In this document: in pieces, positions 10,807-59,133 of the stretch | Layout of the letters: every line of letters starts with the position of its first letter | Numbering within the stretch: position 1 is the first letter of the stretch | From: a virus | Lineage: Duplodnaviria > Caudoviricetes | Reading direction: 5' to 3' (one strand) | Length of the DNA: 60,147 nt | IMG/VR virus record: IMGVR_UViG_3300043433_000128 | Location: 1 to 60,147 of that record | Notes under the pieces: model-generated | What the model was told of the DNA's origin: nothing | Database searches by the model: none | Seen by the model: the letters and a program-made list of their open reading frames with translations, nothing else | Translations under genes and position numbers: made by a program

Positions 10807-13302
10807 TTAGAATCCGCATTGTAACCATGTATTACCTCCATCAGAAGAGTATTCTAAAGATATTCCGGCAGATCCAAATGTACCTCCACCACCGGTACTA
10901 ATGTTAGCATTACCTCCATCAGAAGAGTATTCTAAAGATATTCCGGCAGATCCAAATGTACCTCCACCACCGGTACTAATGTTAGCATTACCATACATTG
11001 TTACGAGTACGTTATCTACTGCATTAAATTGAGATGGAGAAGCCGATATTGTCTGTGGCGTTGTTGTAACTGTAGGGAATGTTCCTGTAAAGTTGTTACC
11101 ATTAAAGCTACATCCAGCAGAACCACCATTTATGTAAGTGTTTGATGATAATCTAAATCTAACAACTGCACTAACACCAGGTCTAACTCTCATTGTACCA
11201 GAACCTGATATTGATATTGGGCTACTGCTTCCAGATCCAGTATAAGTGAAAGTGCCTCCATTATTACCTTGATTTACAAGGTCAGTATATACAACAGCGG
11301 ATGCATTAATATACGCAAATATTTGATATGTTCCTCCTGGATTATATTGACCAAAATTATTATCTTTGATGATATAGTCTATAGTTTTTCCATTTCCATT
11401 AAGATCTATTACCGAATGTTCAGTGAATTGGCCAACACCAGTATTTGCTATAGTTGTAAATGAAAAATTAGATAAACTTGGGCTAATAAACTTATAGAAA
11501 TGATCTGACGCCTTAATTCTATATTTAATATATCTAACGCTACCATTAACTGCAGTTACAGTGCCTGTTGTCATTAATGTTCCGGCTGAATTAGGATCAG
11601 TACCTAAATCATACACTTCAAATACTGAACCATCAGTTATTCCATCAACCGATGCATACGATACAGGAGTTGGGTATGTTACTGTGCTTTCTGGTATTAA
11701 TTCTACGTCGTTAGTGCTATCCCATGTAATTCCTCTCATTGCGCCAGGTGCTCCATGCGCTGAAACTTGTACTGTTAATGTAAATGTATTTGGGTAAGTT
11801 CCTGAACCCATAACAACATTTGTTACTGAATATCCAGTACCTGCTGTAAATCCAAGTGCGCTTAATTGTGTCGCGAAATAATAACCAGCAGCTGCAGTTA
11901 CTTGAATAAATGTTGTATATGAACTTCCTTGTGTTGCAGGTCCATATGCTATTTGCTGTGTTGGTGAACCAGAAACTGTATTATTTAAGTCATCTACTGC
12001 ATATAAGTTATTACCAGAAGGAGCTTGATTTCCTCCCATATCTTGCCAATAACAATCTTCATCTCCTAAATAAATTATCTGAGGAAGCTTTTTAATTTTA
12101 AAAGTACCTCCTGAATATGTAGAAATTGGAGTATCTGTTGTTGCTACTGTTGAAGAAATTCCATAAACATTAGGAGCTGGATTTGTAGCACTCATGCTAA
12201 TATCTGCACCTCCAACTAAGTGGACGTCATTATTAAGTACGTTTGCTGAACCTTGACTGTTTAAATTTATAGTACCTTGATTATCTTGTATTGTATATGA
12301 GAATGAGTTTAGATCCGGAACTGTATGTTGTAACTGTGAATTTGATCCTAACCAAGTTTTTCCATTACAAATATACCAGCCAGCATAATCATTAATTCCT
12401 TTACCAACACTTATTTTTAAAATGTCATCAATATTTGCTAAAGTTACTGTTTCTGAATTTACAAAATTTGAATTGTTGCTAAAAACAGACGGTAAAATCG
12501 AAACTATAGTTCCATAAGGTACTACTCCTCCAAGTTCATCGATACTTTTAAATACAACAGTACCATTATTATCGGAAGCTACTGCAATTTTATCCGCAGC
12601 TGCATTTGCATTTCCAATTTTTAATTGACCGTTAATTGTAACAGGTCTGTCAAATTCAACATCTCTATAATATGTAATACTAGCATCGCTTATGTTTAAT
12701 AATTCATTTCCAGTTGTGTTGTCAACGAAAATGTGTTTTTGAGCATGCCAAATAAGTGAAGTGTTTGCAATATTTTGGAATCCCATCGTAAACTTGTTGA
12801 TGGAATTTTGAGTGTCGTTTTCCATTCTAAAGTTGAATGAATTTCCAACAACATCAGAACTTGTAAATCTTAAATTATGTAAATAATTTGTTCTTCTATT
12901 AATAATCCACTGGTATGGTAATTGACCAGAAACTTGATTTTGGCCAACACCATATTCAGGATCAGTACTGATAAATCCAATACTAACTACTGGCGGATGT
13001 GTACTAATTGCTGGATTATGTATAGGTAAGATAGTATCTACAGGAACTGCTCCACCACCTGCTATATTTTTCCAATATGCTGTATTATTTGCTCCTTGAG
13101 TTCCTTCAGGTCCAGTTAAACCGATAGGACCTTGATAACCTTGAGCTCCTGTAATTCCAGTTGCTCCTTGATCACCAACAGGCCCTGTAAGTCCCATTGG
13201 TCCACCTCCATTAGCGACTAACTGATCAAAATTATAATTAATTTTGTCAAGCTTAATATTATCACTATCAGATAAATTTATCTGTTTCAGGTTTACTATC
13301 AT
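10807..13302 (-). CDS. Tail fibre-like protein with short collagen segment and collar domain
   Basis: KINYNFDQL anchor, about 12 G-X-Y triplets, collar motifs VPYGTIV / GWYICNG / VPDL, G/S/T-rich beta C-terminus. Confidence 0.75.
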   Translation of the reverse strand: MIVNLKQINLSDSDNIKLDKINYNFDQLVANGGGPMGLTGPVGDQGATGITGAQGYQGPIGLTGPEGTQGANNTAYWKNIAGGGAVPVDTILPIHNPAISTHPPVVSIGFISTDPEYGVGQNQVSGQLPYQWIINRRTNYLHNLRFTSSDVVGNSFNFRMENDTQNSINKFTMGFQNIANTSLIWHAQKHIFVDNTTGNELLNISDASITYYRDVEFDRPVTINGQLKIGNANAAADKIAVASDNNGTVVFKSIDELGGVVPYGTIVSILPSVFSNNSNFVNSETVTLANIDDILKISVGKGINDYAGWYICNGKTWLGSNSQLQHTVPDLNSFSYTIQDNQGTINLNSQGSANVLNNDVHLVGGADISMSATNPAPNVYGISSTVATTDTPISTYSGGTFKIKKLPQIIYLGDEDCYWQDMGGNQAPSGNNLYAVDDLNNTVSGSPTQQIAYGPATQGSSYTTFIQVTAAAGYYFATQLSALGFTAGTGYSVTNVVMGSGTYPNTFTLTVQVSAHGAPGAMRGITWDSTNDVELIPESTVTYPTPVSYASVDGITDGSVFEVYDLGTDPNSAGTLMTTGTVTAVNGSVRYIKYRIKASDHFYKFISPSLSNFSFTTIANTGVGQFTEHSVIDLNGNGKTIDYIIKDNNFGQYNPGGTYQIFAYINASAVVYTDLVNQGNNGGTFTYTGSGSSSPISISGSGTMRVRPGVSAVVRFRLSSNTYINGGSAGCSFNGNNFTGTFPTVTTTPQTISASPSQFNAVDNVLVTMYGNANISTGGGGTFGSAGISLEYSSDGGNANISTGGGGTFGSAGISLEYSSDGGNTWLQCGF
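10831..10992. repeat. Perfect 78-bp tandem duplication (2 copies plus ATTACC microhomology)
   Basis: 10831-10908 is identical to 10909-10986; encodes NANISTGGGGTFGSAGISLEYSSDGG twice. Confidence 0.95.
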
Positions 13303-47059: not shown

Positions 47060-47252
47060 AGAACTCCGGATCATTTTCATTTCTATTATAGTATTTAGTT
47101 TCGAATTCCTCTATATAATCAATTCCTTCACTATTTCCCATCATTGCATCGACATTTTTAATATATCGAATATAGAAAGAATTGCTGCCATATTCTTTTA
47201 AATATGTTATAAGAACCTCCGGTTCTGGTATTATTTTTTTATTAAAACTCAT
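47046..47252 (-). CDS. Hypothetical protein
   Basis: Small ORF, start probably MSFNKK overlapping the dCMP deaminase end. Confidence 0.55.
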   Translation of the reverse strand: MSFNKKIIPEPEVLITYLKEYGSNSFYIRYIKNVDAMMGNSEGIDYIEEFETKYYNRNENDPEFYELD

Positions 47253-47757
47253 TCCATGCAATTACGTGTTCAACATCTATTCCTGCCGTTTTAAGTAACT
47301 CGACGCCGCTCATATCTCTATAATCTTCTGTGTAATATACTTTCTTAATACCGGATTGTATGATTAATTTTGCACAATCAAAACAAGGACATGTTGTTGT
47401 ATACAAATCAGCTCCTTCACAACTCATTGTTGATTTTGCAACTTTCATAATTGCGTTTGATTCAGCATGTAGAACTTCACGTTTAGTTACTTGTCGATGT
47501 GCGCAACCTGATTCAGTATCAGATATTGTCCATCCATTTTCTTCTAGTAATTCTGCTTGTTCTGGAAAGTCCCATCCTGTTTTTTCAACACATTCACATG
47601 CATTATCGAATCCATGTGGAGTTCCATTGTAACCAAATGAGATTACTTGTTTATCTTTAACAATAACACAACCCACTTTTCTACGCTCGGCATAGCTAAG
47701 CTTGGCGAACTGATATGCAACTTGCATATAAATTATTTCTGTCGGTATTTTAGGCAT
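47242..47757 (-). CDS. dCMP deaminase
   Basis: KVGCVIV, GYNG, HAESNA, PCFDCAK zinc motifs. Confidence 0.93.
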   Translation of the reverse strand: MPKIPTEIIYMQVAYQFAKLSYAERRKVGCVIVKDKQVISFGYNGTPHGFDNACECVEKTGWDFPEQAELLEENGWTISDTESGCAHRQVTKREVLHAESNAIMKVAKSTMSCEGADLYTTTCPCFDCAKLIIQSGIKKVYYTEDYRDMSGVELLKTAGIDVEHVIAWNEF

Positions 47758-47816: not shown

Positions 47817-48296
47817 TTATTCAACGTCGTCCGCGTCAACAGCGTCCTTCATTTCTTTTATCTCATTTATTTTCTTAGCAAATGCTTCAGACATTTTATT
47901 TAAACATGCTTCATAAGCTTCTGTTTCCATGTCAGCTTTCATTTCTTTAAGAGTATTTGCTGCTAATCCAGCAACTAGTGATGCATTTTCAGCCATGTAA
48001 GTTTCTACAGTGTGCTCATCATGTGCATCTTCTTCCCAAACTTTAGCTTCAGATTTTAATGCTTCATAGCATTCTTTTAACATTTCAGAAACTGGTTTAA
48101 CGACTTCTTTAGCGCCATCATCAGTACCTAAATTAGCTTCTCCAGCCTCGTCAACACCTTGAATTTCTTCAGCTTCCTCTTCAGTCTCTTCTTTAGTTTT
48201 AACTTCCGGAGTTCCTTCAATAGATACTTCTGCTTCTATTTCCTCAGCTCTGTCCATTTCTGAAACAAAGTCTTCGAATTTTTTAATACTTGCCAT
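47817..48296 (-). CDS. Acidic protein, possible prohead core/internal protein
   Basis: MASIKKFEDFVSE capsid-targeting-like start; very Glu-rich; preceded by GATATATA. Confidence 0.6.
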   Translation of the reverse strand: MASIKKFEDFVSEMDRAEEIEAEVSIEGTPEVKTKEETEEEAEEIQGVDEAGEANLGTDDGAKEVVKPVSEMLKECYEALKSEAKVWEEDAHDEHTVETYMAENASLVAGLAANTLKEMKADMETEAYEACLNKMSEAFAKKINEIKEMKDAVDADDVE

Positions 48297-48663: not shown

Positions 48664-49581
48664 TTAGCTATATATTAAGGTAAAATCCTTTTCGTATTTT
48701 TGTAGGGCCAATTCTTTTGCTTTAGCTTCTATTTCAATATCAAGTTCCATTCCATAAGTTTCGATGTACTCATATAAGTAATCTGCATGTGCTCTGATAA
48801 TAGCACTAGAATCTTCATGTAATTTCTTTGCACTTGAATAGTGGCATAGCTGTCGAATGCCTTCGGGCCATGTTGAAGCGGCTAGTCGAAGAGCATCTTC
48901 TTCTGGCATCGGATCTTCATAACATCTATGGTGATGGTAATCGAATGTGATTGGTGTTCCTATTGCCTCATAAATTCGATATAAATCCGATACTGAATAC
49001 TGTGCAGGTTTATCATCATTCTCGACAACCAATCTTGACCGTGCTGATGTAGATAACAATTTAAAGTTATCGATAAATCTCTGTATTGCAGCTTCTTTGT
49101 CACCATAAGATCCACCAACATGAATATTCATTGAATAATATTGATTAGCAGGAAGCCCCATTGTGTCCATGATAAATGCATGCTGGTCTAATTCTTTGAT
49201 TGTTGTATCTACTGTTTTTTGAGTTGGACTTGGTAAAACACAGAACTGACCTGGATGGAATCCAACTCGCTGACCATATTTTTGAACAAGAGAGCCGGCG
49301 CCTTTAAGTAAATTTTCGATTATTGACCAATTTGGTAAATCAGTAAGTTCATATTCAGACATCCATGGAAACATACTTGAAGACATTCGATACACTTTAA
49401 CTCCGTTCTTATTATTCCATTTAATAATTTCAATCATGTCTCGAACGTTTGCTTCTGCAAGTTCACCAGCATATTTGATTCCTCGAGCATCAAATGTTTT
49501 CTTAATCATCGAGCGGCCAATTTTTATGCCAGCTTTGTCTAGTGTTAGATTGATACAACAGTATCCGTAATTTACATTCAT
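48664..49581 (-). CDS. uvsE: UV damage endonuclease
   Basis: GYCCIN, YRMSS, HPGQF, NIHVGG, LVVENDDK, FDYHHH, HYS, HAD, EAKAKE. Confidence 0.93.
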   Translation of the reverse strand: MNVNYGYCCINLTLDKAGIKIGRSMIKKTFDARGIKYAGELAEANVRDMIEIIKWNNKNGVKVYRMSSSMFPWMSEYELTDLPNWSIIENLLKGAGSLVQKYGQRVGFHPGQFCVLPSPTQKTVDTTIKELDQHAFIMDTMGLPANQYYSMNIHVGGSYGDKEAAIQRFIDNFKLLSTSARSRLVVENDDKPAQYSVSDLYRIYEAIGTPITFDYHHHRCYEDPMPEEDALRLAASTWPEGIRQLCHYSSAKKLHEDSSAIIRAHADYLYEYIETYGMELDIEIEAKAKELALQKYEKDFTLIYS

Positions 49582-50288: not shown

Positions 50289-50632
50289 TACTTCCAAAAA
50301 ATTTGGATGCATACAAGTACTAAGGATATTATTAATGAAACGACCGTTTTTGTAGTTAGAGGTTCTCCCATTATGATGTAGGTTAATATTGAAAAGGCAA
50401 CCATTCCTGTCGCAAATCCTAAAAACCTACCGGGCCATATCTCTCCTCCATAATATTCAGCAACTAATCGAGTTGCAACAATAAACATATAAGATATTGT
50501 GCTTCCTCCTATCAGTGCAACTATGATTGGATTCTTTTTAAACCATGGCCATACGAATTGACCATTAGTTTGAAACCATATCATCGATTGTCCTAATAAA
50601 AATAATAGGATTCCATATATTAGACTCTTCAT
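50288..50632 (-). CDS. Small 4-TM membrane protein (SMR/DMT-like)
   Basis: 114 aa with four hydrophobic segments; GEPLT loop before the last helix. Confidence 0.6.
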   Translation of the reverse strand: MKSLIYGILLFLLGQSMIWFQTNGQFVWPWFKKNPIIVALIGGSTISYMFIVATRLVAEYYGGEIWPGRFLGFATGMVAFSILTYIIMGEPLTTKTVVSLIISLVLVCIQIFWK

Positions 50633-51264
50633 TAGAATAATGAGGTGGTCTCGGTTAAAAGGTGTGATATAAAACTAGGTCTATGAGATTCACTAGGACC
50701 CATTTCTTTAATTGCTTTAATATGTTGTGCTGTTCCATATCCTTTGTTTGAATTCCAGCCATATCCCGGAGTTTCAATGTCCAAATCTTTCATCATAGCA
50801 TCCCTTTCGGTTTTTGCTAAGATACTTGCAGCAGCAATTGAGATATATTTATTGTCTCCACCTACTATTGTATCAAATGGCATACCTTCAAATCCATGAA
50901 ATTGATCTCCATCGACTAATATAAAATCAAATTTGAATTTGGATTGGACATTTTCTAGACAACGCTGCATTCCGATTAAGGTGGCTTTAAGAATATTTGT
51001 TGATTCTATTTCATCTGGATAGATGTGTTCGATATGGTACGCTAGTGCATTCTCCTCAACAATTTTTCTAGCATCTTTTCTTTGCTGTTCATTAAGTAAT
51101 TTAGAATCTTTAATTAGTGGATTCTCAAATCCAAATGGCATAATACATGCTGCGACTGTAACAGGTCCTGCAAGAGCTCCGCGACCTGCTTCATCAAGCC
51201 CAATTTCTATAACTGATTCGTCACCAGAATATGATGACTTTAATAATATTTGTCTAGTTTCCAT
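50632..51264 (-). CDS. rnhB: Ribonuclease HII
   Basis: GLDEAGRGALAGPV, DSKLL, VDG, IAAASILAK, NKGYGT, HRPSF. Confidence 0.95.
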   Translation of the reverse strand: METRQILLKSSYSGDESVIEIGLDEAGRGALAGPVTVAACIMPFGFENPLIKDSKLLNEQQRKDARKIVEENALAYHIEHIYPDEIESTNILKATLIGMQRCLENVQSKFKFDFILVDGDQFHGFEGMPFDTIVGGDNKYISIAAASILAKTERDAMMKDLDIETPGYGWNSNKGYGTAQHIKAIKEMGPSESHRPSFISHLLTETTSLF

Positions 51265-51311: not shown

Positions 51312-52022
51312 TTATTTTTCAGGATTATCAATTCTCCATTTGTCGTAACGATCTACAACTTCTTGAAGTATTTTAGCTCTAACAATATCTTTATTTCCGA
51401 AGATATGTTCTCCAACACCATTTACGCCTTTCATTAATTGCATAAATCCAGGTAATCCAGCATGTGCTTTAGGTATATCATATTGACTAACGTCTCCAGT
51501 TACTAGAACTTTAGAACTTTTACCCATTCTTGTTGTGAATAACATTAATTGCTTGAATGTTGCATTTTGAGCCTCATCTAAAATCATGAAGGCATCATCA
51601 AAAGTATCTCCTCGCATGAAAGCAAGTGGTTTGAATTCTATTAAACCATAATGAATAAGGCTTTCGATTAATTCATCACCTGCAATTTTCTTAAAGTTAG
51701 AAATATAAGATTGCATGTATGGATCAATTTTATCGGCAATATCTCCTGGTAAGAATCCTAGTTTTTCTCCAGATTCTTGGATTGGTTTACATAAAATAAT
51801 CTTCTTGACCTTTTTTTCAGCAAGTAACAATAAGGATGTGTAGCATGCAGTAAATGTTTTTGAGGTTCCGGCCGGGCCGGAACAAAATGTGATTTGATTC
51901 TTAAGAATCTGTTGGACGTATTCTCTTTGATTGTCTCGTAAATTAACATGTTTGATATTGTCTTCTTTAACTGACATTCGTTTAACACTAGGTGTTGGTT
52001 CTGAATTAGTCTTTTTCTGCAT
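51312..52022 (-). CDS. phoH: PhoH-like ATPase
   Basis: GPAGTSKT, EKLGFLPG, FMRGDTF, ILDEAQN, GDVSQYD, DIVR. Confidence 0.93.
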   Translation of the reverse strand: MQKKTNSEPTPSVKRMSVKEDNIKHVNLRDNQREYVQQILKNQITFCSGPAGTSKTFTACYTSLLLLAEKKVKKIILCKPIQESGEKLGFLPGDIADKIDPYMQSYISNFKKIAGDELIESLIHYGLIEFKPLAFMRGDTFDDAFMILDEAQNATFKQLMLFTTRMGKSSKVLVTGDVSQYDIPKAHAGLPGFMQLMKGVNGVGEHIFGNKDIVRAKILQEVVDRYDKWRIDNPEK

Positions 52023-52036
52023 AAATTGAGATATAT

Positions 52037-52294
52037 TTAGTCGCCCGCCATTATGACAAGGTCTTTCAATTTCTTAAGTGTTTCGCATTTTTCGTATTCT
52101 TCGAGCGCAACAAAATACTCGATTAGGACATCAATGAATTTACTTCTTTGTCCGATTCCATGTGGAATATCGATTGTACTTTTACCATCTTGGTATACAA
52201 CAAACCTATTAACGGTTTTTGTAAAGTTGCGGGTAATTATGTAGTAGCTGGATCTCATCAGAGAGTCTCTTTCCTCTCCTGTTATATTTTCCAT
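52037..52294 (-). CDS. UVR-motif small protein 1
   Basis: C-terminal YFVALEEYEKCETLKKL. Confidence 0.65.
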   Translation of the reverse strand: MENITGEERDSLMRSSYYIITRNFTKTVNRFVVYQDGKSTIDIPHGIGQRSKFIDVLIEYFVALEEYEKCETLKKLKDLVIMAGD

Positions 52295-52411
52295 CTTTTA
52301 ATATTGTTTTTATTAGAAGCCACTTAAAGTAGCAATCTAATGTATATATTTAGATGGCAATGTATTTGTCAATCTCCGGGTGAAAAATGGTACTATACCA
52401 TTATATTATAG

Positions 52412-52594
52412 TTATTCGTCCTGGAATGATTGTCTATATTTTGCCTTGCTTTTTTCTGATCTTTTAGTGACAGAAGGTTTTACATATTCCTCTCTTTCCC
52501 TAAGTTCTTTAAGCTGTTTGGTGGCAAAAGTTTTGTGCTTTAAAGTTTTAAGCGCCTTTTCTATATTTTGATTATCTACTTTAATTATAAGCAT
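52412..52594 (-). CDS. rpsU: Ribosomal protein bS21, Bacteroidota-type
   Basis: MLIIKV...NIEKALK...K...ELRER..YVKPSVTKR....KAKY (60 aa); true start 52594. Confidence 0.9.
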   Translation of the reverse strand: MLIIKVDNQNIEKALKTLKHKTFATKQLKELREREEYVKPSVTKRSEKSKAKYRQSFQDE

Positions 52595-52842
52595 GAAAGT
52601 TTGTCTATTATTTTTTTGAGTTCTTTGCACTTTTCATATTCTTCTCTTTCTTTAAAGAAATTCAGTACATTTTGAACACCTTCTATTTTATCTTCAACTG
52701 GAGCGTTATGATTTAATGCTCCCATCTTGTCTTTGATTATAGAACTATATATTAGTTCCATCATATCTTCTCTTGAAGATTCATGTAACTTTTTAATGAA
52801 TTTTGTTTCGTTGTTTTCGTACTCGTCTAAATCATCCATCAC
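52585..52842 (-). CDS. UVR-motif small protein 2
   Basis: C-terminal FFKEREEYEKCKELKKI. Confidence 0.65.
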   Translation of the reverse strand: MMDDLDEYENNETKFIKKLHESSREDMMELIYSSIIKDKMGALNHNAPVEDKIEGVQNVLNFFKEREEYEKCKELKKIIDKLSCL

Positions 52843-53660
52843 AAATTTTTAATCTTTTTAAGTATTTCAATTTGGTCTTCGGTTAAATGAATCGGTAAAG
52901 TTCTAAGCTTCACCATTAAATTACCAAATCCTTCTTGATTATATATTGGCATTCCTTTGTCAACAACCCTGAGTATTTTAAAATCATGAGAACCTTCTGG
53001 GACTTTAATCTTTACAGTGTGTACTTTTGTTTTAACTTCAAAATCACCTCCTAATAACATATCAATCCATGATAGACTGAGGTCGACATAAATATCATTA
53101 CCATTTACTATTAAATCAGCATCTGGTAGAACATTTATTGTTAAAATTACGTCTCCTGCTGGGGCTCCGGTATTGATTGGGTGTTTTGCTCCTCTTCCAG
53201 GGACCTTGAGTTTAGTTCCGTTTGGAATTCCTCTAGGGATATTAATATTGAAGCCGCCAGTTCCGACATCGACATATCTTCTTGTTCCTTCATAACTTTC
53301 TTCTATTGTTATATTTAGTGACACTCTGACATCAGAACCTCTAGCATTTCCGCCAAATGATTGATTAAACATATCGGTGAAATCTCCGCCAAATGTAGAA
53401 AACAGATCTTCCCATTGATCACTATTATATGCTCTTTGGTCTGGTCTTCTAAAAGCAGTATATCCAGAATTCTTGTTATCGTGTAGTTTTCTTTTTGTAG
53501 GATCTCCTAAAATCTCGTAAGCTTCTGAGATTTGTTTGAACTTAGTGTCATCCCCTCCAGTTTTATCTGGATGGTGTTCCTTTACAAGCTTTCTATATGA
53601 TTTTTTAATATCATCTTGTGAAGCATTTTTAGAAACGTTAAGAGTTTCATAATAATTCAT
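52839..53660 (-). CDS. dnaJ: DnaJ/CbpA-type co-chaperone (no zinc finger)
   Basis: NYYETL, HHPDK J-domain, G/F region, C-terminal IPRG...KGMP...GNLMV. Confidence 0.92.
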   Translation of the reverse strand: MNYYETLNVSKNASQDDIKKSYRKLVKEHHPDKTGGDDTKFKQISEAYEILGDPTKRKLHDNKNSGYTAFRRPDQRAYNSDQWEDLFSTFGGDFTDMFNQSFGGNARGSDVRVSLNITIEESYEGTRRYVDVGTGGFNINIPRGIPNGTKLKVPGRGAKHPINTGAPAGDVILTINVLPDADLIVNGNDIYVDLSLSWIDMLLGGDFEVKTKVHTVKIKVPEGSHDFKILRVVDKGMPIYNQEGFGNLMVKLRTLPIHLTEDQIEILKKIKNL

Positions 53661-53664
53661 TAGG

Positions 53665-53877
53665 CTATTTTGAAGAGTTTGGTGCTACTGTTTTTACCCT
53701 AATAGTTTGTTTTCTTTCAGGAATAGGTCGGGTACGAACTTGTTTTTTCGCGTTCTCTTTTTTCTCGGCAATTTGAGATTTTTTATGGATATTAATTTCT
53801 CTAACTTGCTTATTTTCTAAAAGTGTCGCGATGCGCTCTAAACTATCCGCAATTCTTTTTAATGTTTCGTCTTCCAT
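53665..53877 (-). CDS. Hypothetical basic protein
   Basis: 70 aa; LKRIADSLERIA coiled coil. Confidence 0.6.
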   Translation of the reverse strand: MEDETLKRIADSLERIATLLENKQVREINIHKKSQIAEKKENAKKQVRTRPIPERKQTIRVKTVAPNSSK

Positions 53878-53915
53878 ATTACTTTATTACTTTATTACTA
53901 TATTATATATTAAAG

Positions 53916-53938
53916 AAAAAAGGAGCTTAGGCTCCTTT
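53916..53938 (-). terminator. Intrinsic terminator
   Basis: AAAGGAGC-CTAA-GCTCCTTT plus T-run; the stop codon of the upstream gene lies in the loop. Confidence 0.75.
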
Positions 53939-54220
53939 GTTAATTTCGTCTAATATCTTTTTAATCTTAGAACATTTTTCATATTCCTCTAATTCTACAA
54001 ATATAGCTAACATATCATTCAGCGTATTTACCAGAGGTGCGATGCTAATTCCTCGATAAATCATCTCATGAATATCAATTCCATTTTTGATTATCATGTT
54101 ATAGTTTTCGTTTGCTAGCTTAAGTTTTAAATCATATAATATTTCTTGCATACGAGTATCTTTTAATATTGATTCAATGTCGAATGTTTCTTCAAATCCT
54201 TCGTAAAAATCGTCTTCCAT
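53927..54220 (-). CDS. UVR-motif small protein 3
   Basis: C-terminal IFVELEEYEKCSKIKKI. Confidence 0.65.
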   Translation of the reverse strand: MEDDFYEGFEETFDIESILKDTRMQEILYDLKLKLANENYNMIIKNGIDIHEMIYRGISIAPLVNTLNDMLAIFVELEEYEKCSKIKKILDEINKGA

Positions 54221-54232
54221 AGTTGTTATCTT

Positions 54233-54314
54233 TAATTTGATATGTAAATATAAACATAATATTTCAATCGGTAAAACTTTTTATGTTAATTTTTTGTTAA
54301 AGTTATTAACAATT
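54233..54314 (-). promoter_or_regulatory. Bipartite class-I element copy C
   Basis: AATTGTTAATAACT ... TTATATTTACATATCAAATTA, with two extra TTAACA repeats 11 bp apart. Confidence 0.7.
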
Positions 54315-55133
54315 AACCTTGATTGCTTTAGATTGAATCTCATCTATTTTAGATTGTATTGTATTATTTTCTAAAGATTCACTATAATGTATTGCTAATC
54401 CTGCATTTTTATTTGATTCGCTATTTCTTTGAGCATATAGTCGATATCTTTCTTCAACATATTCTTTGCCCATAAATTTATAATGTAATAGTTTTATAGG
54501 AAAATCATTAAATGTTTCTAAAACCTCAAATTGCATTTTCCATCTACCCCATGGATGTCCATTCCATTCGCCAACTGGTCTAATTTCAACCGGAACTGGA
54601 TGTACTATATCTCCATTTAATTTAGAATTTAGTTCAATCTCATGGCAACCTTCAATCCATTCTAAAGATTCTATTAGGTTTGGATTAATTAAAATGGGCT
54701 TCGAATACCATGGATCTGGAGTTCCATGCCCGATTTCATCGTATATTTGACCATGAGATTCTGGAAAACTTTGTGATACCATTTGAAACCCTGCTGGAAA
54801 TATTACGGGTGAATTTGATTGTTGCAAGAATTCGATAATATTTGGGTGTATTATAAATTCATCACAGTCACTTACAATAATATAATCCGCTTTTCCTTTG
54901 GCCTCTTCAATACATTTATGCTTTAAATCTAAATGGACATAATCGTCAAAGGTTTCTCCGGTACTATATGTTCGAACTTCAACATTATCCCATTCTCTAC
55001 ATAGTGTTACCGTGTTATCTGTTGATTCATTATCTAGGACAATTATTCTTTCACAAAAACTAGAATAGTGTCTTAGATAATAAGGAAGCATACGCTCCTC
55101 ATTCCAGACTGTTACATATGCCCATATCTTCAT
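54306..55133 (-). CDS. Glycosyltransferase family 2-like
   Basis: WNEERML, VLDNESTDNT, DCDEF (DxD), GCH, LLHYKF. Confidence 0.85.
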   Translation of the reverse strand: MKIWAYVTVWNEERMLPYYLRHYSSFCERIIVLDNESTDNTVTLCREWDNVEVRTYSTGETFDDYVHLDLKHKCIEEAKGKADYIIVSDCDEFIIHPNIIEFLQQSNSPVIFPAGFQMVSQSFPESHGQIYDEIGHGTPDPWYSKPILINPNLIESLEWIEGCHEIELNSKLNGDIVHPVPVEIRPVGEWNGHPWGRWKMQFEVLETFNDFPIKLLHYKFMGKEYVEERYRLYAQRNSESNKNAGLAIHYSESLENNTIQSKIDEIQSKAIKVNC

Positions 55134-55135
55134 GG

Positions 55136-55861
55136 TTACGAAAGTATTGGTAGACCTGATATTTTTAACATCACGTTCATTGTTGCAACAACATCACCTT
55201 CGCAATATTCTTTAATCTTTTCTAGATTTCCATTCCAATATTCTGGTGTTGTATTTTCAGCCTTCATGATTAATTTAGGGGAAGGAATGTTAAGACAATC
55301 ACAAATTAAATCAAGGGAAGTACTACTCCATCCTGCAAATTTCCATATCTCATAAGTATCTAATAAACAGTTTTCCCATGGTTTTTTCTTTTGTAAATGA
55401 AATTGAACAGGAACTTTAACGCCATTTATAATGGCTCTTTTTATTAGATATGGAAAATCAAAGTTTTTAATATTATGTCCAATAAATTGAATTCCTGGAT
55501 TTGCATTAAAAATCGATTGAGCGGTTCCCATAAATTCTTTAAGAATTTGAGCTTCGTCATCTCCATAAAAAGACTTAATTTTTGATGATGAAAACTCTCC
55601 GCTTTCATCAAATTTTATTTGACCAATAGAGATAACAATAATCTTTCCGAATTCTGGAGATAATGCTGACATTCTATCATAAAGTTCGCTATCACTAAGT
55701 AATCGTAATTGTGATTCTGTAGATCTGTGTTGTTCTGCTTTTTTAGACCAGTATTTTTCAATACTTGGTTTTGTTGCTTTAAATGAATCATAACTATTGA
55801 ATTCTGAAACGGTTTCAATATCGATAAACAACATCGATTTTAATTCTTTTTGACTATACAT
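55136..55861 (-). CDS. PolB-like 3'-5' exonuclease (DEDDy)
   Basis: FIDIET, PEFGKI, GHNIKNFDFPY, KPWE, YCEGDV. Confidence 0.85.
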   Translation of the reverse strand: MYSQKELKSMLFIDIETVSEFNSYDSFKATKPSIEKYWSKKAEQHRSTESQLRLLSDSELYDRMSALSPEFGKIIVISIGQIKFDESGEFSSSKIKSFYGDDEAQILKEFMGTAQSIFNANPGIQFIGHNIKNFDFPYLIKRAIINGVKVPVQFHLQKKKPWENCLLDTYEIWKFAGWSSTSLDLICDCLNIPSPKLIMKAENTTPEYWNGNLEKIKEYCEGDVVATMNVMLKISGLPILS

Positions 55862-56126: not shown

Positions 56127-56346
56127 ATAGTTCAGATAAAAAATCTAGGTGGTCGTGAGATTGTCTAAGTTTTAAATAATCGGTGAATGATATAGACAAT
56201 TCAACCCACCCTCCTGTTATTGATTGAGGTACATCAGAAATACTGATAAAATAATGAGGTACTTCTTTTGTTCTATCCAATAAGAAGTCGACCATAAGAT
56301 CGACTTCTCTATTGTGAACCCATATTTTAACGAATATGTTATTCAT
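56125..56346 (-). CDS. Hypothetical protein
   Basis: 73 aa, overlaps the glycosyltransferase stop. Confidence 0.55.
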   Translation of the reverse strand: MNNIFVKIWVHNREVDLMVDFLLDRTKEVPHYFISISDVPQSITGGWVELSISFTDYLKLRQSHDHLDFLSEL

Positions 56347-58168
56347 TTTCAGTGTATGTTATATTTGCAGCCATTTCAGATTCTCCGTATCTAGGTTCTG
56401 TATTTAAAGGTGCTTCAGGATTTTCATCATAAGCCCAATCCTTTAAACCAAGTTCTTCAAATCTATCTTTGATTTGTTCATTATAATAATAAGAAATTGT
56501 TCTTACTCTTCTTTGAATATCAGCTCTAGCTAAATCGTGTGTGTTTTGTCCAGTTGCGTTATTGTATAAAAATTGAACATATCCTAATTTAGGAATTTTG
56601 CATGTTATTGTTTTTAAGAAAGTTCTTACGATCAATTCATAATCATCTGCTATTGTAAGATTTCTATTATGTCCACCAATTTCAAAATAGGTCGATCTTC
56701 TCCACGCTCTTACGTGGTTTGGAACACCAACAATATGTCTAATTGTTTTGGGATTGATATTATGTTGAGTTGCAACTTTCATCATCTGTCCATTATACTC
56801 CTCATCTCTATAAGATCCATACGCAAAAGCAAATCCTTCAGGATATGTTTGACATTCCCAATTTTCATTAACCTCTAACGTGTCATTAAAAAAGAATCCA
56901 GCCTCTGGATGTTTCTTTGCTGCTTTATATAAATCTTCAGTACACCATGGAACTAATAAATCGTCATGGTCTAATTCTGCAAGAATAAATCCTTTAGCAA
57001 GAGTACAACATCTCCACTTTACTTCTCCGATATTACCTCCACTTTTTTCTCTAAAGTCATATAATTTAACTCGAGGATCTTTACTCGCAATTTCTTCAGC
57101 GATTTTTAAGGTTTTACCACCATCTGCTGAATCGTTTACCAGTACCCATTCCCAATTTGAATAGGTCTGATCTAGTAATGATTTGTACGTGTTCCAGAGT
57201 TTATCTCCAGTGTTATATATTGGAGTAAAGTATGAAACCATTTCTGAATCTTCAAGTGAATCCGGGCTTAACATCGTGTTCATAGAACATTGATATGCTG
57301 ATTGACCTACCTCTTCGATAGAGACATTATTTGGAATATTAATCCATTTTCTACGAAATTGTAGAGGCATTGCAGCAAGGTATGGAAATTCTTGCCAACT
57401 TTCTCCACGAGAAATAATACAATCAGGTTTAAAAACAGAAAGATGTATATTTATATTTTCGTCAGATTTTAGATATTTTACTTCTAAATTATCGGCTTCA
57501 TAATATAAAACTTTATATGATTTTAATTCTGGTTCATCTTGACCTATATAAAGAATCTTCGGAACTTTAGCTGATGATTTCTTTTCAAGTGCATTATAAT
57601 AACATAATACATTTTCAATAAAATAGAATTGCTCTGGATTTTTGTTATGTAATTTTTCTATAAATTCTCCATCTGCAGTATATCCTGAACCATACAAATT
57701 ATCTTTATGTAAGCTTGAGTGTATAAGCCATTGTGCTAGATCAATTTCTCTTACTCTAACATTTTCAGGTTTTGCATATCTAATGTCAACTCCTGAAAAA
57801 TCGATACCTCCGACTTTTTGTGAAAAGATAACCGCTTTTTTATCTTCTAACTTTGCTTTTTTAATGGTACTGTAGAAATTTTCATGCAGAATATTATCAT
57901 CATCTAAGTGATAGATCCAACCTTCTAATTTTTGAATTATCGGGTTTAATTGGCTTAGTCCCCATCCATCCCCTTTTCTAAAGTGGAATTGTGTATTTTC
58001 ATCGCTTAGTCTATTTAATAATTCGGCATCAATATCTTTTAATACTTTTGTGTCGAATACAATGTGCCAAGTTACTTTACATCCTTTTGGTATGTTGTTA
58101 AAAACAGAATCCCTAACCTTTTCTAAATTATTTAGTCTAGTGCTTCTAGTAATTATTTGAAATTTCAT
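56339..58168 (-). CDS. Two-domain glycosyltransferase (GT-A + GT2)
   Basis: N-domain YHLDDDN...ADGEF; C-domain TPIYNT, QTYSNWEWVLVND, ELDHDD, ADDYEL. Confidence 0.88.
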   Translation of the reverse strand: MKFQIITRSTRLNNLEKVRDSVFNNIPKGCKVTWHIVFDTKVLKDIDAELLNRLSDENTQFHFRKGDGWGLSQLNPIIQKLEGWIYHLDDDNILHENFYSTIKKAKLEDKKAVIFSQKVGGIDFSGVDIRYAKPENVRVREIDLAQWLIHSSLHKDNLYGSGYTADGEFIEKLHNKNPEQFYFIENVLCYYNALEKKSSAKVPKILYIGQDEPELKSYKVLYYEADNLEVKYLKSDENINIHLSVFKPDCIISRGESWQEFPYLAAMPLQFRRKWINIPNNVSIEEVGQSAYQCSMNTMLSPDSLEDSEMVSYFTPIYNTGDKLWNTYKSLLDQTYSNWEWVLVNDSADGGKTLKIAEEIASKDPRVKLYDFREKSGGNIGEVKWRCCTLAKGFILAELDHDDLLVPWCTEDLYKAAKKHPEAGFFFNDTLEVNENWECQTYPEGFAFAYGSYRDEEYNGQMMKVATQHNINPKTIRHIVGVPNHVRAWRRSTYFEIGGHNRNLTIADDYELIVRTFLKTITCKIPKLGYVQFLYNNATGQNTHDLARADIQRRVRTISYYYNEQIKDRFEELGLKDWAYDENPEAPLNTEPRYGESEMAANITYTENE

Positions 58169-58185
58169 ATTATATTATTAAGTTA

Positions 58186-59133
58186 TTATACGTCAAAAAA
58201 GAACATGTGGAAGAATCTTGAGTTATCTATTGCATCTCCAAAATACTGAGTAGCAGCATGGATGTTCTTAGCATCGAACAATACTAATCTATTATAAACA
58301 TTTCCAACCTCATCTATTTTTTCAAAATGAGTTCCATCATAAAAATTCATCTCAGCATTTTTACCCTGGAAAGCTCTAACATAGTTTATTGTTTTTCTTT
58401 TCTCATCATTAAAGCTATAATCACCGGTAACTTTACTTCTGTAGAAAGCAGTTCCAGTTGATGGTGGAGCGTCTGGCGTTAAGAATACGATTCCAGCGTA
58501 AGTTTGATTATCTACATGGTAAACAATCGGCTGATCTGCTGTACAGAATTGAAATATACCATTTGCATATGCATCATAATTCCAGTTATAGATTGGTTTT
58601 CCAATTATCTCTTCAAGCTTTTCTTTCATACCATAGATTGAGAATCTATTGATTGCTCTTTCCCCTTTGTGATATGCTGAAGGTGAGAATTCAATTTCTT
58701 TTATTGCCCATTCTCTAATAAAATCCGGATCTTTGTAAAAGTTATCTACGACGATAACTCCCTTATTTTCATTTGAAACACCAGAATAATATGATACCCA
58801 TTTAGCAAAAGATTCAATTTCATAAGAAGTTCCTGTTGTTCCATTCGTATCTTCTGTTGATACAATTACCTTCTTAAAAATATCTGTTTTTCGGATGTTT
58901 ATTTCGAAACCGATATTAGTTTCTTTTAAATTAGGATAAAAATTAGATACATCTGTTCTTTCATGAAATTTACATGATGCCTTTCCATCTTTTACAAAGA
59001 TGTCAGTTACTTTGCTATAATCTGCTGCAAAGATCCAGCCTTTAATTAAATATGATGTTGGTTTCTTTTCTACCGAATCAACATACATTAATATGTTTTC
59101 GGAAGTTGTTAAATGTGATATAATGTCTGCCAT
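58186..59133 (-). CDS. 2OG-Fe(II) oxygenase-like protein (DUF6445-like) with N-terminal Ig-like domain
   Basis: VVDNFYKDPD, HVD, YNRLVLFDAKNIHAA, RFFHMFFFD; HxD...H iron triad. Confidence 0.7.
   Translation of the reverse strand: MADIISHLTTSENILMYVDSVEKKPTSYLIKGWIFAADYSKVTDIFVKDGKASCKFHERTDVSNFYPNLKETNIGFEINIRKTDIFKKVIVSTEDTNGTTGTSYEIESFAKWVSYYSGVSNENKGVIVVDNFYKDPDFIREWAIKEIEFSPSAYHKGERAINRFSIYGMKEKLEEIIGKPIYNWNYDAYANGIFQFCTADQPIVYHVDNQTYAGIVFLTPDAPPSTGTAFYRSKVTGDYSFNDEKRKTINYVRAFQGKNAEMNFYDGTHFEKIDEVGNVYNRLVLFDAKNIHAATQYFGDAIDNSRFFHMFFFDV

Follow-up and report, generated by a model that had tools for sequence, protein, structure and literature searches.

IMG/VR record IMGVR_UViG_3300043433_000128 is a Caudoviricetes sequence of 60,147 nucleotides (nt) at a CheckV completeness of 24%, and this whole stretch, hereafter the window, carries three small open reading frames (ORFs), U1, U2 and U3, that end in the same EEYEKC motif and are interleaved with genes for ribosomal protein bS21 and a DnaJ-type co-chaperone. 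The locus raises the question of what the shared tail is, and to what partner it might tether three otherwise dissimilar proteins. A sequence-only reading had taken the tail for a UVR hairpin, the element found in UvrB, UvrC and the ClpC middle domain, and had proposed a set of adaptors with variable heads docking on host ClpC or UvrB. We find that U1, U2 and U3 are anciently diverged members of one phage-only small-protein family, each with its own head. New here is also that relatives of this phage encode ClpP together with an N-domain-less ClpC-like unfoldase with a canonical UVR middle domain. That the U proteins would be head-plus-hairpin adaptors or regulators docking on a UVR-type partner, most likely the phage ClpC, is the reading that the sequences suggest to us, and we advance it tentatively, as possible rather than probable.

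A six-frame translation of the window contains EEYEKC exactly three times, all in U1, U2 and U3, and with a profile of their common tail the three ORFs reach 44.2, 47.3 and 48.5 bits, against 3.5 bits for the next window ORF. Coordinates and motif count thus agree with the earlier description of three ORFs of 85–97 amino acids with a common C-terminal motif; a candidate fourth copy (E.YE.A at 47904–47921) was rejected on a profile score of −1.3. Overall identity among U1, U2 and U3 is 26–29%, nearly all of it within the tail, and when only the N-terminal parts are clustered they fall into three groups with zero cross-links at E 1e-3, which bears out the dissimilar N-termini noted before. Orthologs were counted over 80 sources, namely the window and 79 distinct related viral loci obtained by an IMG/VR scan with the U3 alignment: the U3 group has 82 members in 71 sources, the U1 group 69 members in 69 and the U2 group 65 members in 65. 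Because orthologs of each are found in 65–71 of the 80 sources, the three ORFs are far beyond chance.

The architecture of the proteins was then read from the alignments and from AlphaFold2 models. U1 has 29 invariant columns out of 85 at a mean column identity of 63%, and is laid out as a helix, a beta hairpin with an invariant I-P-H, the EEYEKC hairpin and a conserved tail with GD at its end; its model (mean predicted local distance difference test score, pLDDT, 76.6) places helices at residues 6–23, 49–63 and 67–82 and strands at 32–36 and 39–42. The U3 model (pLDDT 85.5) has helices at 9–46, 50–55, 61–76 and 80–96. Common to the two is a predicted helix-turn-helix hairpin of about 36 residues (61–76/80–96 in U3, 49–63/67–82 in U1; block mean pLDDT 90–96), the signature of which is L..M(L/I)..F.E.EEYEKCA.LKKI. 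The Cys of EEYEKC is invariant in all alignments made (A3, A5, A6, A7 and A8); 41 of the 65 U2 orthologs have a Cys within their last three residues, and U1 and U3 have no second conserved Cys. Clustering, profile and models together uphold the earlier view that the three are paralogs within a single family, differing in their heads and alike in the C-terminal hairpin.

The family extends well beyond this locus. A hairpin profile made from 38 sequences (alignment A3) and run against 1.84 billion cluster representatives, with clusters at 50% identity, matches 1187 representatives at E<=1e-3. Among the best 150 of these 1187, most are 35–155 amino acids long and six are 207–313, and with P0177 as the sole exception the match is close to the C-terminus; an LPD38 head (2.5e-30) and an HU-type DNA-binding head (2.6e-10) occur in one representative each, P0145 being one of the two. 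Comparison of PHROGs with the same 150 gives three matches, each a different head family. DHR-2_Lobe_A, matched by 15 of the 150 at E about 0.005, was taken as a chance likeness of helical hairpins. A group of proteins of 207–256 amino acids that begin with MA(I/V)KI also has the hairpin at the C-terminus. Outside metagenomic viral sequence the searches were empty: a scan with the U3 alignment found no cellular relative of U3 among 185,579 prokaryote species, each represented by one genome, tblastn against 50,697 GenBank phage records gave none for U3 (E<=1) or U1 (E<=10) and one chance row only for a 143-residue family member, and the string EEYEKC has no occurrence in the literature text searched. 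Against Pfam and PHROGs, U1, U2 and U3 gave nothing above a curated cut-off or with a convincing E-value. Within the cellular reference genomes, GenBank phages, Pfam and PHROGs searched, the hairpin family is previously undescribed and phage-only.

Applied to the window and the 79 loci, the iterated tail profile finds 226 hairpin ORFs, nearly all of 60–120 amino acids and every one with its hairpin at most 14 residues from the C-terminus; 56 sources have three, 11 have four and 10 have one. The gene order Exo-(GT)-U3-(s70)-DnaJ-U2-(bS21)-U1-PhoH-RNaseHII, in which Exo is the exonuclease, GT a glycosyltransferase, s70 a 70-residue ORF and brackets mark optional genes, recurs in 68 of the 79 loci. 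Counted singly, DnaJ and RNase HII occur in 68 loci each, PhoH in 67 and s70 homologs in 47, and identity of U3 among loci drops to about 30%. Since all 68 loci were found via U3, this synteny amounts to conservation in one diverse lineage and not to independent co-occurrence. The remaining 11 loci belong to other phage lineages and hold one family member without DnaJ, PhoH or S21; a second scan brought in more lineages, in which single proteins of about 140 amino acids represent the family, and the gene contexts in other lineages (endolysin, phosphoesterases, domains of unknown function) give no functional lead.

The place of bS21 in this arrangement deserves comment, as the sequence-only reading had expected a conserved linkage of the U proteins with bS21 and DnaJ. 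bS21 lies between U2 and U1 in 51 of the 79 loci and is absent from 17 of the 68 modules, in which U2 directly adjoins U1 (in locus L160 the two are separated by just 94 nt). Because these 17 modules keep U2 beside U1, bS21 is an optional insert; it may have arrived as a later passenger between U2 and U1, outside the module core. The DnaJ half of the expected linkage therefore holds and the bS21 half does not, and the dispensability of bS21 weakens the earlier reading. In 11 loci (L022–L026 and L032–L037) there is, upstream of the exonuclease gene, a second, divergent U3-group copy of about 100 amino acids whose motif is EKYERC, and these genomes are the same ones that lack bS21.

To compare the hairpin with UVR proper, 38 true UVR domains were taken from UvrB, UvrC and ClpC in unrelated genomes and aligned (A4). 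As can be seen from hhalign, A3 and A4 align over 36–37 columns in one register, EEYEKCA.LKK on.DFERAA.LRD, with a score of 16.65 and P 0.0017. None of 400 column shuffles reaches this score (highest 14.0 and 15.1), and a 188-sequence hairpin profile gives P 0.0016 with a score reached by 0 of 150 shuffles, whereas the control TPR_1, also a hairpin with [YF]-E-x-A, scores 9.05 over 11 columns at P 0.12. In full-length UvrB and UvrC alignments the best local match of the hairpin falls exactly on the UVR motif, and in the alignment of the relatives' phage ClpC it likewise falls on the UVR motif, in the same register; a two-sequence Nitrospirota ClpC alignment gave no alignment with the hairpin profile. 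Like the UVR elements of UvrB, UvrC and ClpC, the U hairpin is a helix-turn-helix of about 36 residues, as predicted here, with the turn signature [ED]-[FY]-E-[KR]-x-A-x-[LI] in common, and as in UvrB it stands at the extreme C-terminus. PF02151, the Pfam profile of UVR, matches two of the best 150 of the 1187 family representatives at E<=0.1 (best 7.9e-4), and the nearest named Atlas cluster both of U1 and of the U3 tail is viral, with 32% of its members bearing PF02151, a match (score 0.83) to be read as a lead only. Judged from these alignments, the UVR kinship is weak but specific, and the hairpin is probably, though by no means surely, a very divergent UVR-type hairpin.

A candidate partner with a UVR domain of its own is found in the relatives. 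All of five large ones (133–234 kb) have genes for ClpP and for a two-ring Hsp100 of 656–672 amino acids, the ClpC-like ATPases of the relatives measuring 656–687 overall. Pfam resolves the ATPase (about 656 amino acids) into AAA, AAA_lid_9, UVR at residues 267–295 (21.7 bits against the curated cut-off of 21.5), AAA_2 (5.8e-72) and ClpB_D2-small; its middle domain reads QDYEKAA.FRD and is hit by PF02151 above the cut-off in four of four large relatives. Clp_N is not in the best 25 of the 39 Pfam families that match the ATPase, and in each of 15 sequences D1 begins after about 30 residues. An IGF at residues 519–521 is conserved in at least 90% of these 15; we take this [LIV]-G-[FL] loop motif to be the site of ClpP docking. 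By its domain content the relatives' ATPase is a ClpC-type Hsp100, with a pair of AAA+ modules, a UVR coiled-coil middle domain in the small subdomain of D1 and the loop, but without N-domain. An HSP70 gene is found in none of the five large relatives, so the phage DnaJ must act with a host partner (DnaK). Forty-seven module-bearing records were examined for the ATPase (the search took in 50 of the 74 loci that remained), and it was found in 25 of them, always 6.6–33 kb upstream of U3: in 22 of the 23 records with at least 20 kb upstream of U3 and in 16 of the 16 with at least 25 kb. In one contig (G084, of locus L071) the ClpC-like gene appears to be divided between two open frames of 525 and 169 amino acids (11028–12555), for which a frameshift or an assembly error is possible. 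Another relative (G037) encodes, at L188:435–1190, a 251-residue protein with a canonical UVR motif (PF02151, 28.1 bits) at its C-terminus and no homolog in the window or the fetched loci; because of this protein of one relative, the design of a head followed by a C-terminal UVR exists in the lineage.

The mechanism that we tentatively propose starts from the hairpin as a very divergent UVR-type element that would serve as a docking module and pair with another UVR-type helical hairpin, as other UVR hairpins do. Its likeliest partner would be the phage-encoded ClpC-like unfoldase, through its middle domain, and, in phages without such an unfoldase, a host Hsp100. U1–U3 might then be adaptors or regulators whose differing heads deliver clients or partners to the unfoldase and ClpP, or switch the unfoldase on, and they might do so beside a phage DnaJ that itself depends on host DnaK. 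The sequence-only reading had named host ClpC as a partner; the protease-adaptor part of that proposal has become more concrete because relatives encode ClpP and, with a UVR middle domain, a ClpC-like ATPase of their own. A bolder extension would have a self-contained phage degradation system, comprising the N-domain-less ClpC-like unfoldase, ClpP and a trio of tiny adaptors whose hairpin mimics and docks on the UVR middle domain while their heads choose clients (host proteins, DnaJ-bound clients or PhoH partners), with the more than 1000 related hairpin proteins forming a general class of viral tags that join arbitrary heads to host or viral Hsp100; taken as a whole, this picture we consider unlikely.

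A number of results weigh against docking on the unfoldase. On the side of the hairpin, PF02151, the profile by which the UVR assignment was originally to be checked, has no match at E<=1 in U1, U2 or U3, none at E<=10 in the window translated in six frames and none at E<=10 in the 38 hairpin segments (0/38); with the cut-off of 21.5 bits not reached by the three proteins, the hairpin is by this profile not a member of PF02151 as the family is defined. The probability that hhalign assigns to A3 against A4 is just 16%, and the P of about 0.002 contrasts with the 7e-7 between true UVR sets (true UVR against the phage ClpC middle domain: 6.8e-7 over 30 columns). Against that same middle domain the hairpin gives P 0.008–0.011 over 14–15 columns, a result reached by 1 of 150 shuffles. 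Three residues are invariant in A4, E26, A28 and R32, and of these the hairpin keeps the Glu and changes the other two, with an invariant Cys for Ala and mostly Lys for Arg; unlike UVR, moreover, the hairpin family is confined to small phage proteins. The identification of the tail as UVR thus stands as a profile–profile likeness beyond shuffles and the TPR control, and falls short at the Pfam profile and the two changed residues. Fold comparison yields only generic helical matches: Foldseek with the U3 model finds nothing in the PDB at E<=0.001 beyond generic helical or TPR-like rows, and a wide fold search with the U1 model gives generic helical bundles throughout, with a best Z of 6.5. (A BAG domain for U1, at Z 5.5–5.8, was level with unrelated bundles and was dropped.) Sequence-profile searches of the PDB with alignments A2, A3, A6 and A7 returned no match or else rows at chance level (E > 0.4), and UvrB, UvrC and ClpC were not among the PDB profile matches.

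On the side of the partner, the ATPase gene lies 6.6–33 kb from the module and not within it, and its co-occurrence with the module is not independent evidence, because the ATPase is universal in the lineage. The window has neither ClpC nor ClpP; its contig ends 5.9 kb upstream of U3, too early to be able to show the ClpC-like gene. In the lineages without DnaJ, the ClpC-like ATPase is found in none of eight records, one of them a complete 67-kb genome, and the loci of other lineages have no Clp, DnaJ, PhoH or S21 homolog within up to 8 kb on each side of the family member. A predicted complex of the ClpC-like fragment 180–385 with U1, both from relative G042 and modelled without controls, reached a median of 0.28 against a mark of 0.32 and speaks neither way on binding. 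Docking of the U proteins on the unfoldase is a candidate interaction, proposed from sequence, that we treat with reserve.

Other readings of the same data have to be weighed against docking on the unfoldase. The hairpins may instead pair with each other, giving homo- or hetero-oligomers that join the three heads, perhaps with DnaJ, PhoH or something else. The C-terminal domain of UvrB pairs with itself and with UvrC, and UVR domains pair mutually; the UVR likeness of the hairpin is thus as compatible with this reading as is the presence of a nearly invariant hairpin in paralogs that are encoded together (three per locus in 56 sources, four in 11), in a fixed gene order and with each ortholog group kept in 65–71 of the 80 sources. 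What tells against it is the lone family member of other lineages, with one hairpin ORF in 10 sources and the single proteins of about 140 amino acids: since many lineages carry a single member, hetero-oligomers are not the general function, and homo-oligomers are the form that such pairing could take there. We regard mutual pairing as rather unlikely. If on the other hand the hairpin were unrelated to UVR, the invariant Cys of EEYEKC might be the functional centre, metal-bridged or redox-sensitive and possibly between subunits. This would fit the invariance of that Cys in the five alignments at a position where true UVR has an invariant Ala, the second, C-terminal Cys in 41 of 65 U2 orthologs, the missing PF02151 match of the window's proteins and the 16% of hhalign. 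A lone Cys per hairpin is insufficient for a metal site, however, with U1 and U3 lacking a second conserved one, and its spacing in the alignments puts the Cys on the hydrophobic stripe along helix 2, at the Ala of UVR. In UvrB, UvrC and phage ClpC alike the best local match is to the UVR motif, with an unchanged register; neither the shuffles nor the TPR control reach the hhalign score, and we hold a Cys-centred function to be distinctly unlikely.

The coupling of U2 to dnaJ suggests yet another role. In E. coli the small, MerR-like protein CbpM regulates the DnaJ-like CbpA and is encoded just downstream of cbpA, and U2, made in step with DnaJ, might by analogy tune J-domain or client binding, with U3 and U1 doing likewise. 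The base shared by the dnaJ stop and the U2 start (TGATG), the order U3-DnaJ-U2 in all main arrangements, the presence of DnaJ in 68 of 79 loci and the need for a host partner in the five large relatives, none of which has an HSP70 gene, agree with such a role. Only one paralog of the three is so coupled, U3 being followed by a terminator-like hairpin and U1 standing behind a 117-nt gap; the family occurs without DnaJ within up to 8 kb on each side in several other lineages, and with no U protein above any Pfam curated cut-off the parallel to CbpM is one of gene position only. DnaJ modulation as the common function appears improbable to us. The partners originally proposed, host UvrB or UvrC in repair or host ClpC, together with a variant in which the U proteins load phage bS21 onto host ribosomes, draw on the weak UVR likeness, on the need for a host partner in lineages without phage ClpC, on the overlap of U2 with rpsU and on the presence of UvdE in the window, so that DNA repair matters to the phage. 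They are opposed by the 17 of 68 modules that lack bS21 and keep U2 beside U1, by the finding of no link of the U proteins to repair genes, by a bS21 genome scan that yields just Nitrospirota matches of about 40% identity and hence no host assignment, and by the absence of any U3 relative from one genome each of the 185,579 species; we consider these host-directed roles highly improbable.

Docking of a UVR-type hairpin on ClpC has a parallel in plastids, where CLPC1 traps are enriched in UVR-domain proteins and the adaptor CLPF has a UVR domain, as described in parts of PMC8889267, the domain legend of which also names McsA. CLPF, EXE1/2 and UVR2–4, as presented there, resemble the U proteins in combining an unrelated head or body with one UVR-type hairpin, and the plant UVR proteins were recovered with trapped CLPC1, whose middle domain is of the UVR type (PMC8889267), as is that of the ClpC-like ATPase of the phage lineage. 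Compared with these plant partners, the U proteins, as candidate partners of ClpC, are much smaller (85–97 amino acids) and have a divergent hairpin, and the phage ATPase is without N-domain. Among phage proteins, Gp53 of SPO1 is described in PMC6873191 as adaptor-like for host ClpC, and it compares with the U proteins as a small phage protein proposed to redirect ClpC/ClpP in infection; set side by side by description, it differs in its size of 25 kDa and in having host ClpC for a target, where the candidate target here is phage-encoded. Large phages carrying ClpP, ClpS, DnaJ and ClpA/ClpX are covered by PMC7824862, and share with the relatives studied here the combination of DnaJ, ClpP and an Hsp100-type ATPase; the passages of that paper on ClpP, DnaJ, UVR, S21, Hsp100 and ClpA do not mention a small hairpin family or an N-domain-less, UVR-bearing ClpC. 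Chen et al. report freshwater-lake Bacteroidetes phages that encode bS21, with chaperones and Clp protease noted as well (PMC9723584). These too are large freshwater phages with bS21; their bS21 gene lies on the reverse strand inside a block of structural genes, in contrast to the gene described here, which is on the same strand as its neighbours, between U2 and U1 and near DnaJ and PhoH (PMC9723584).

Should docking on the unfoldase hold true, it would represent a compact and modular way for a phage to steer unfolding and degradation, with a 36-residue C-terminal tag linking unrelated small proteins to Hsp100, and it would assign a function to a very large phage family (the 1187 clusters at 50% identity). 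Present understanding of how adaptors control ClpC centres on the N-domain, and such tags would explain how a ClpC without this domain is regulated. Mechanism aside, the conserved block U3-DnaJ-U2-(bS21)-U1-PhoH, in which bS21 is optional, is an aid to the annotation of large freshwater phages, and the optional nature of bS21 is a caution against inferring function from the neighbours of bS21.

The features of the module and its surroundings are collected in Table 1. All module genes and their neighbours are on the minus strand, and they are read in the order PolB-exonuclease-like gene, family-2 glycosyltransferase, U3, s70, DnaJ, U2, bS21, U1, PhoH and RNase HII. That the three ORFs flank bS21 and DnaJ, as stated before, is confirmed by the Pfam matches of the two genes. 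The bS21 protein scores 47.8 bits for Ribosomal_S21 against a cut-off of 27 and so belongs to that family; DnaJ, by its J domain with HPD and its C-terminal client-binding domain, belongs to its own, and since no zinc-finger family is among its Pfam matches it is of the kind without a Cys-rich domain.

Table 1. Positions in the window of the module genes, adjoining genes and a predicted terminator, in reading order.
Feature	Position	Strand	Remarks
PolB-exonuclease-like gene	55136–55861	−	
Family-2 glycosyltransferase adjoining U3	54306–55133	−	Pfam; kept in just 14/79 loci
U3	53927–54220	−	97 amino acids, all-helical, C-terminal EEYEKC hairpin; 31 metagenomic homologs
Terminator-like hairpin across U3 stop codon	53919–53938	−	Consensus scan, 8 pairs then T run; pattern match only
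s70, 70-residue ORF between U3 and dnaJ	53665–53877	−	Helix-like N-terminal part, Lys/Arg-rich tail
DnaJ-type co-chaperone	52839–53660	−	273 amino acids; Pfam DnaJ 7.3e-23, DnaJ_C 6.2e-29
U2	52585–52842	−	Helical, C-terminal EEYEKC hairpin; 85 amino acids from GTG
rpsU (bS21)	52412–52594	−	Pfam Ribosomal_S21 1.2e-12; PHROG 21469 2e-07
U1	52037–52294	−	85 amino acids, most conserved paralog
PhoH-like ATPase	51312–52022	−	Pfam PhoH 2e-62; starts 14 nt downstream of U1 stop
RNase HII, end of conserved block	50632–51264	−	Pfam RNase_HII 6.3e-36

The orthologs of U2 begin at ATG 52839, which gives the protein 84 amino acids, and with this start the TGA stop of dnaJ and the ATG of U2 have one base in common (TGATG). 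The likely start of rpsU is ATG 52594, its longest ORF running from GTG 52630, and if it starts at ATG 52594 the U2 stop falls 10 nt within it. The overlaps of dnaJ, U2 and rpsU reported before are therefore real, and U1 stands outside them, overlapping no gene and separated from rpsU by the gap of 117 nt. Read by eye, this gap holds a TTGACA and a TATATA with an 18-nt spacer (52344–52373, minus strand), which is not among the sites of a consensus scan, and a small hairpin lies 3′ of rpsU; the scan for sigma-70-type promoters returned 34 sites compared with 32.2 in shuffles, which is no excess. A few kilobases downstream of the module are genes on the same strand for a UvdE UV-damage endonuclease (48664–49581, Pfam 1.2e-58) and a dCMP/cytidine deaminase (47242–47757, Pfam 3.2e-24), and upstream of U3 are two family-2 glycosyltransferases and a DUF6445 protein (54306–55133, 56339–58168 and 58186–59133). 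In a relative's contig of 2599 nt (run X20) the s70 stretch 53661–53837 is swapped for 179 unrelated letters, with colinear flanks.

The same DNA is found in freshwater and aquatic metagenomes of several studies. As to the host, the bS21 scan mentioned above is unusable for assignment, and the sole likeness at the DNA level to a cultured phage, 50 nt of the J-domain coding region with 88% identity to Cellulophaga phage DnaJ genes (Cellulophaga phage phi4:1, gp151), is too short to give one. Contigs from RNA libraries of two studies, at 90–95% identity, span PhoH to U3 and PhoH into U2, which is no proof of transcription. Many RNA-library contigs also match a stretch of about 30 nt just upstream of U3 (54231–54264), at a summed depth of up to 817; this stretch has no repeat in the window at up to three mismatches, and related phages may share it as a regulatory element.

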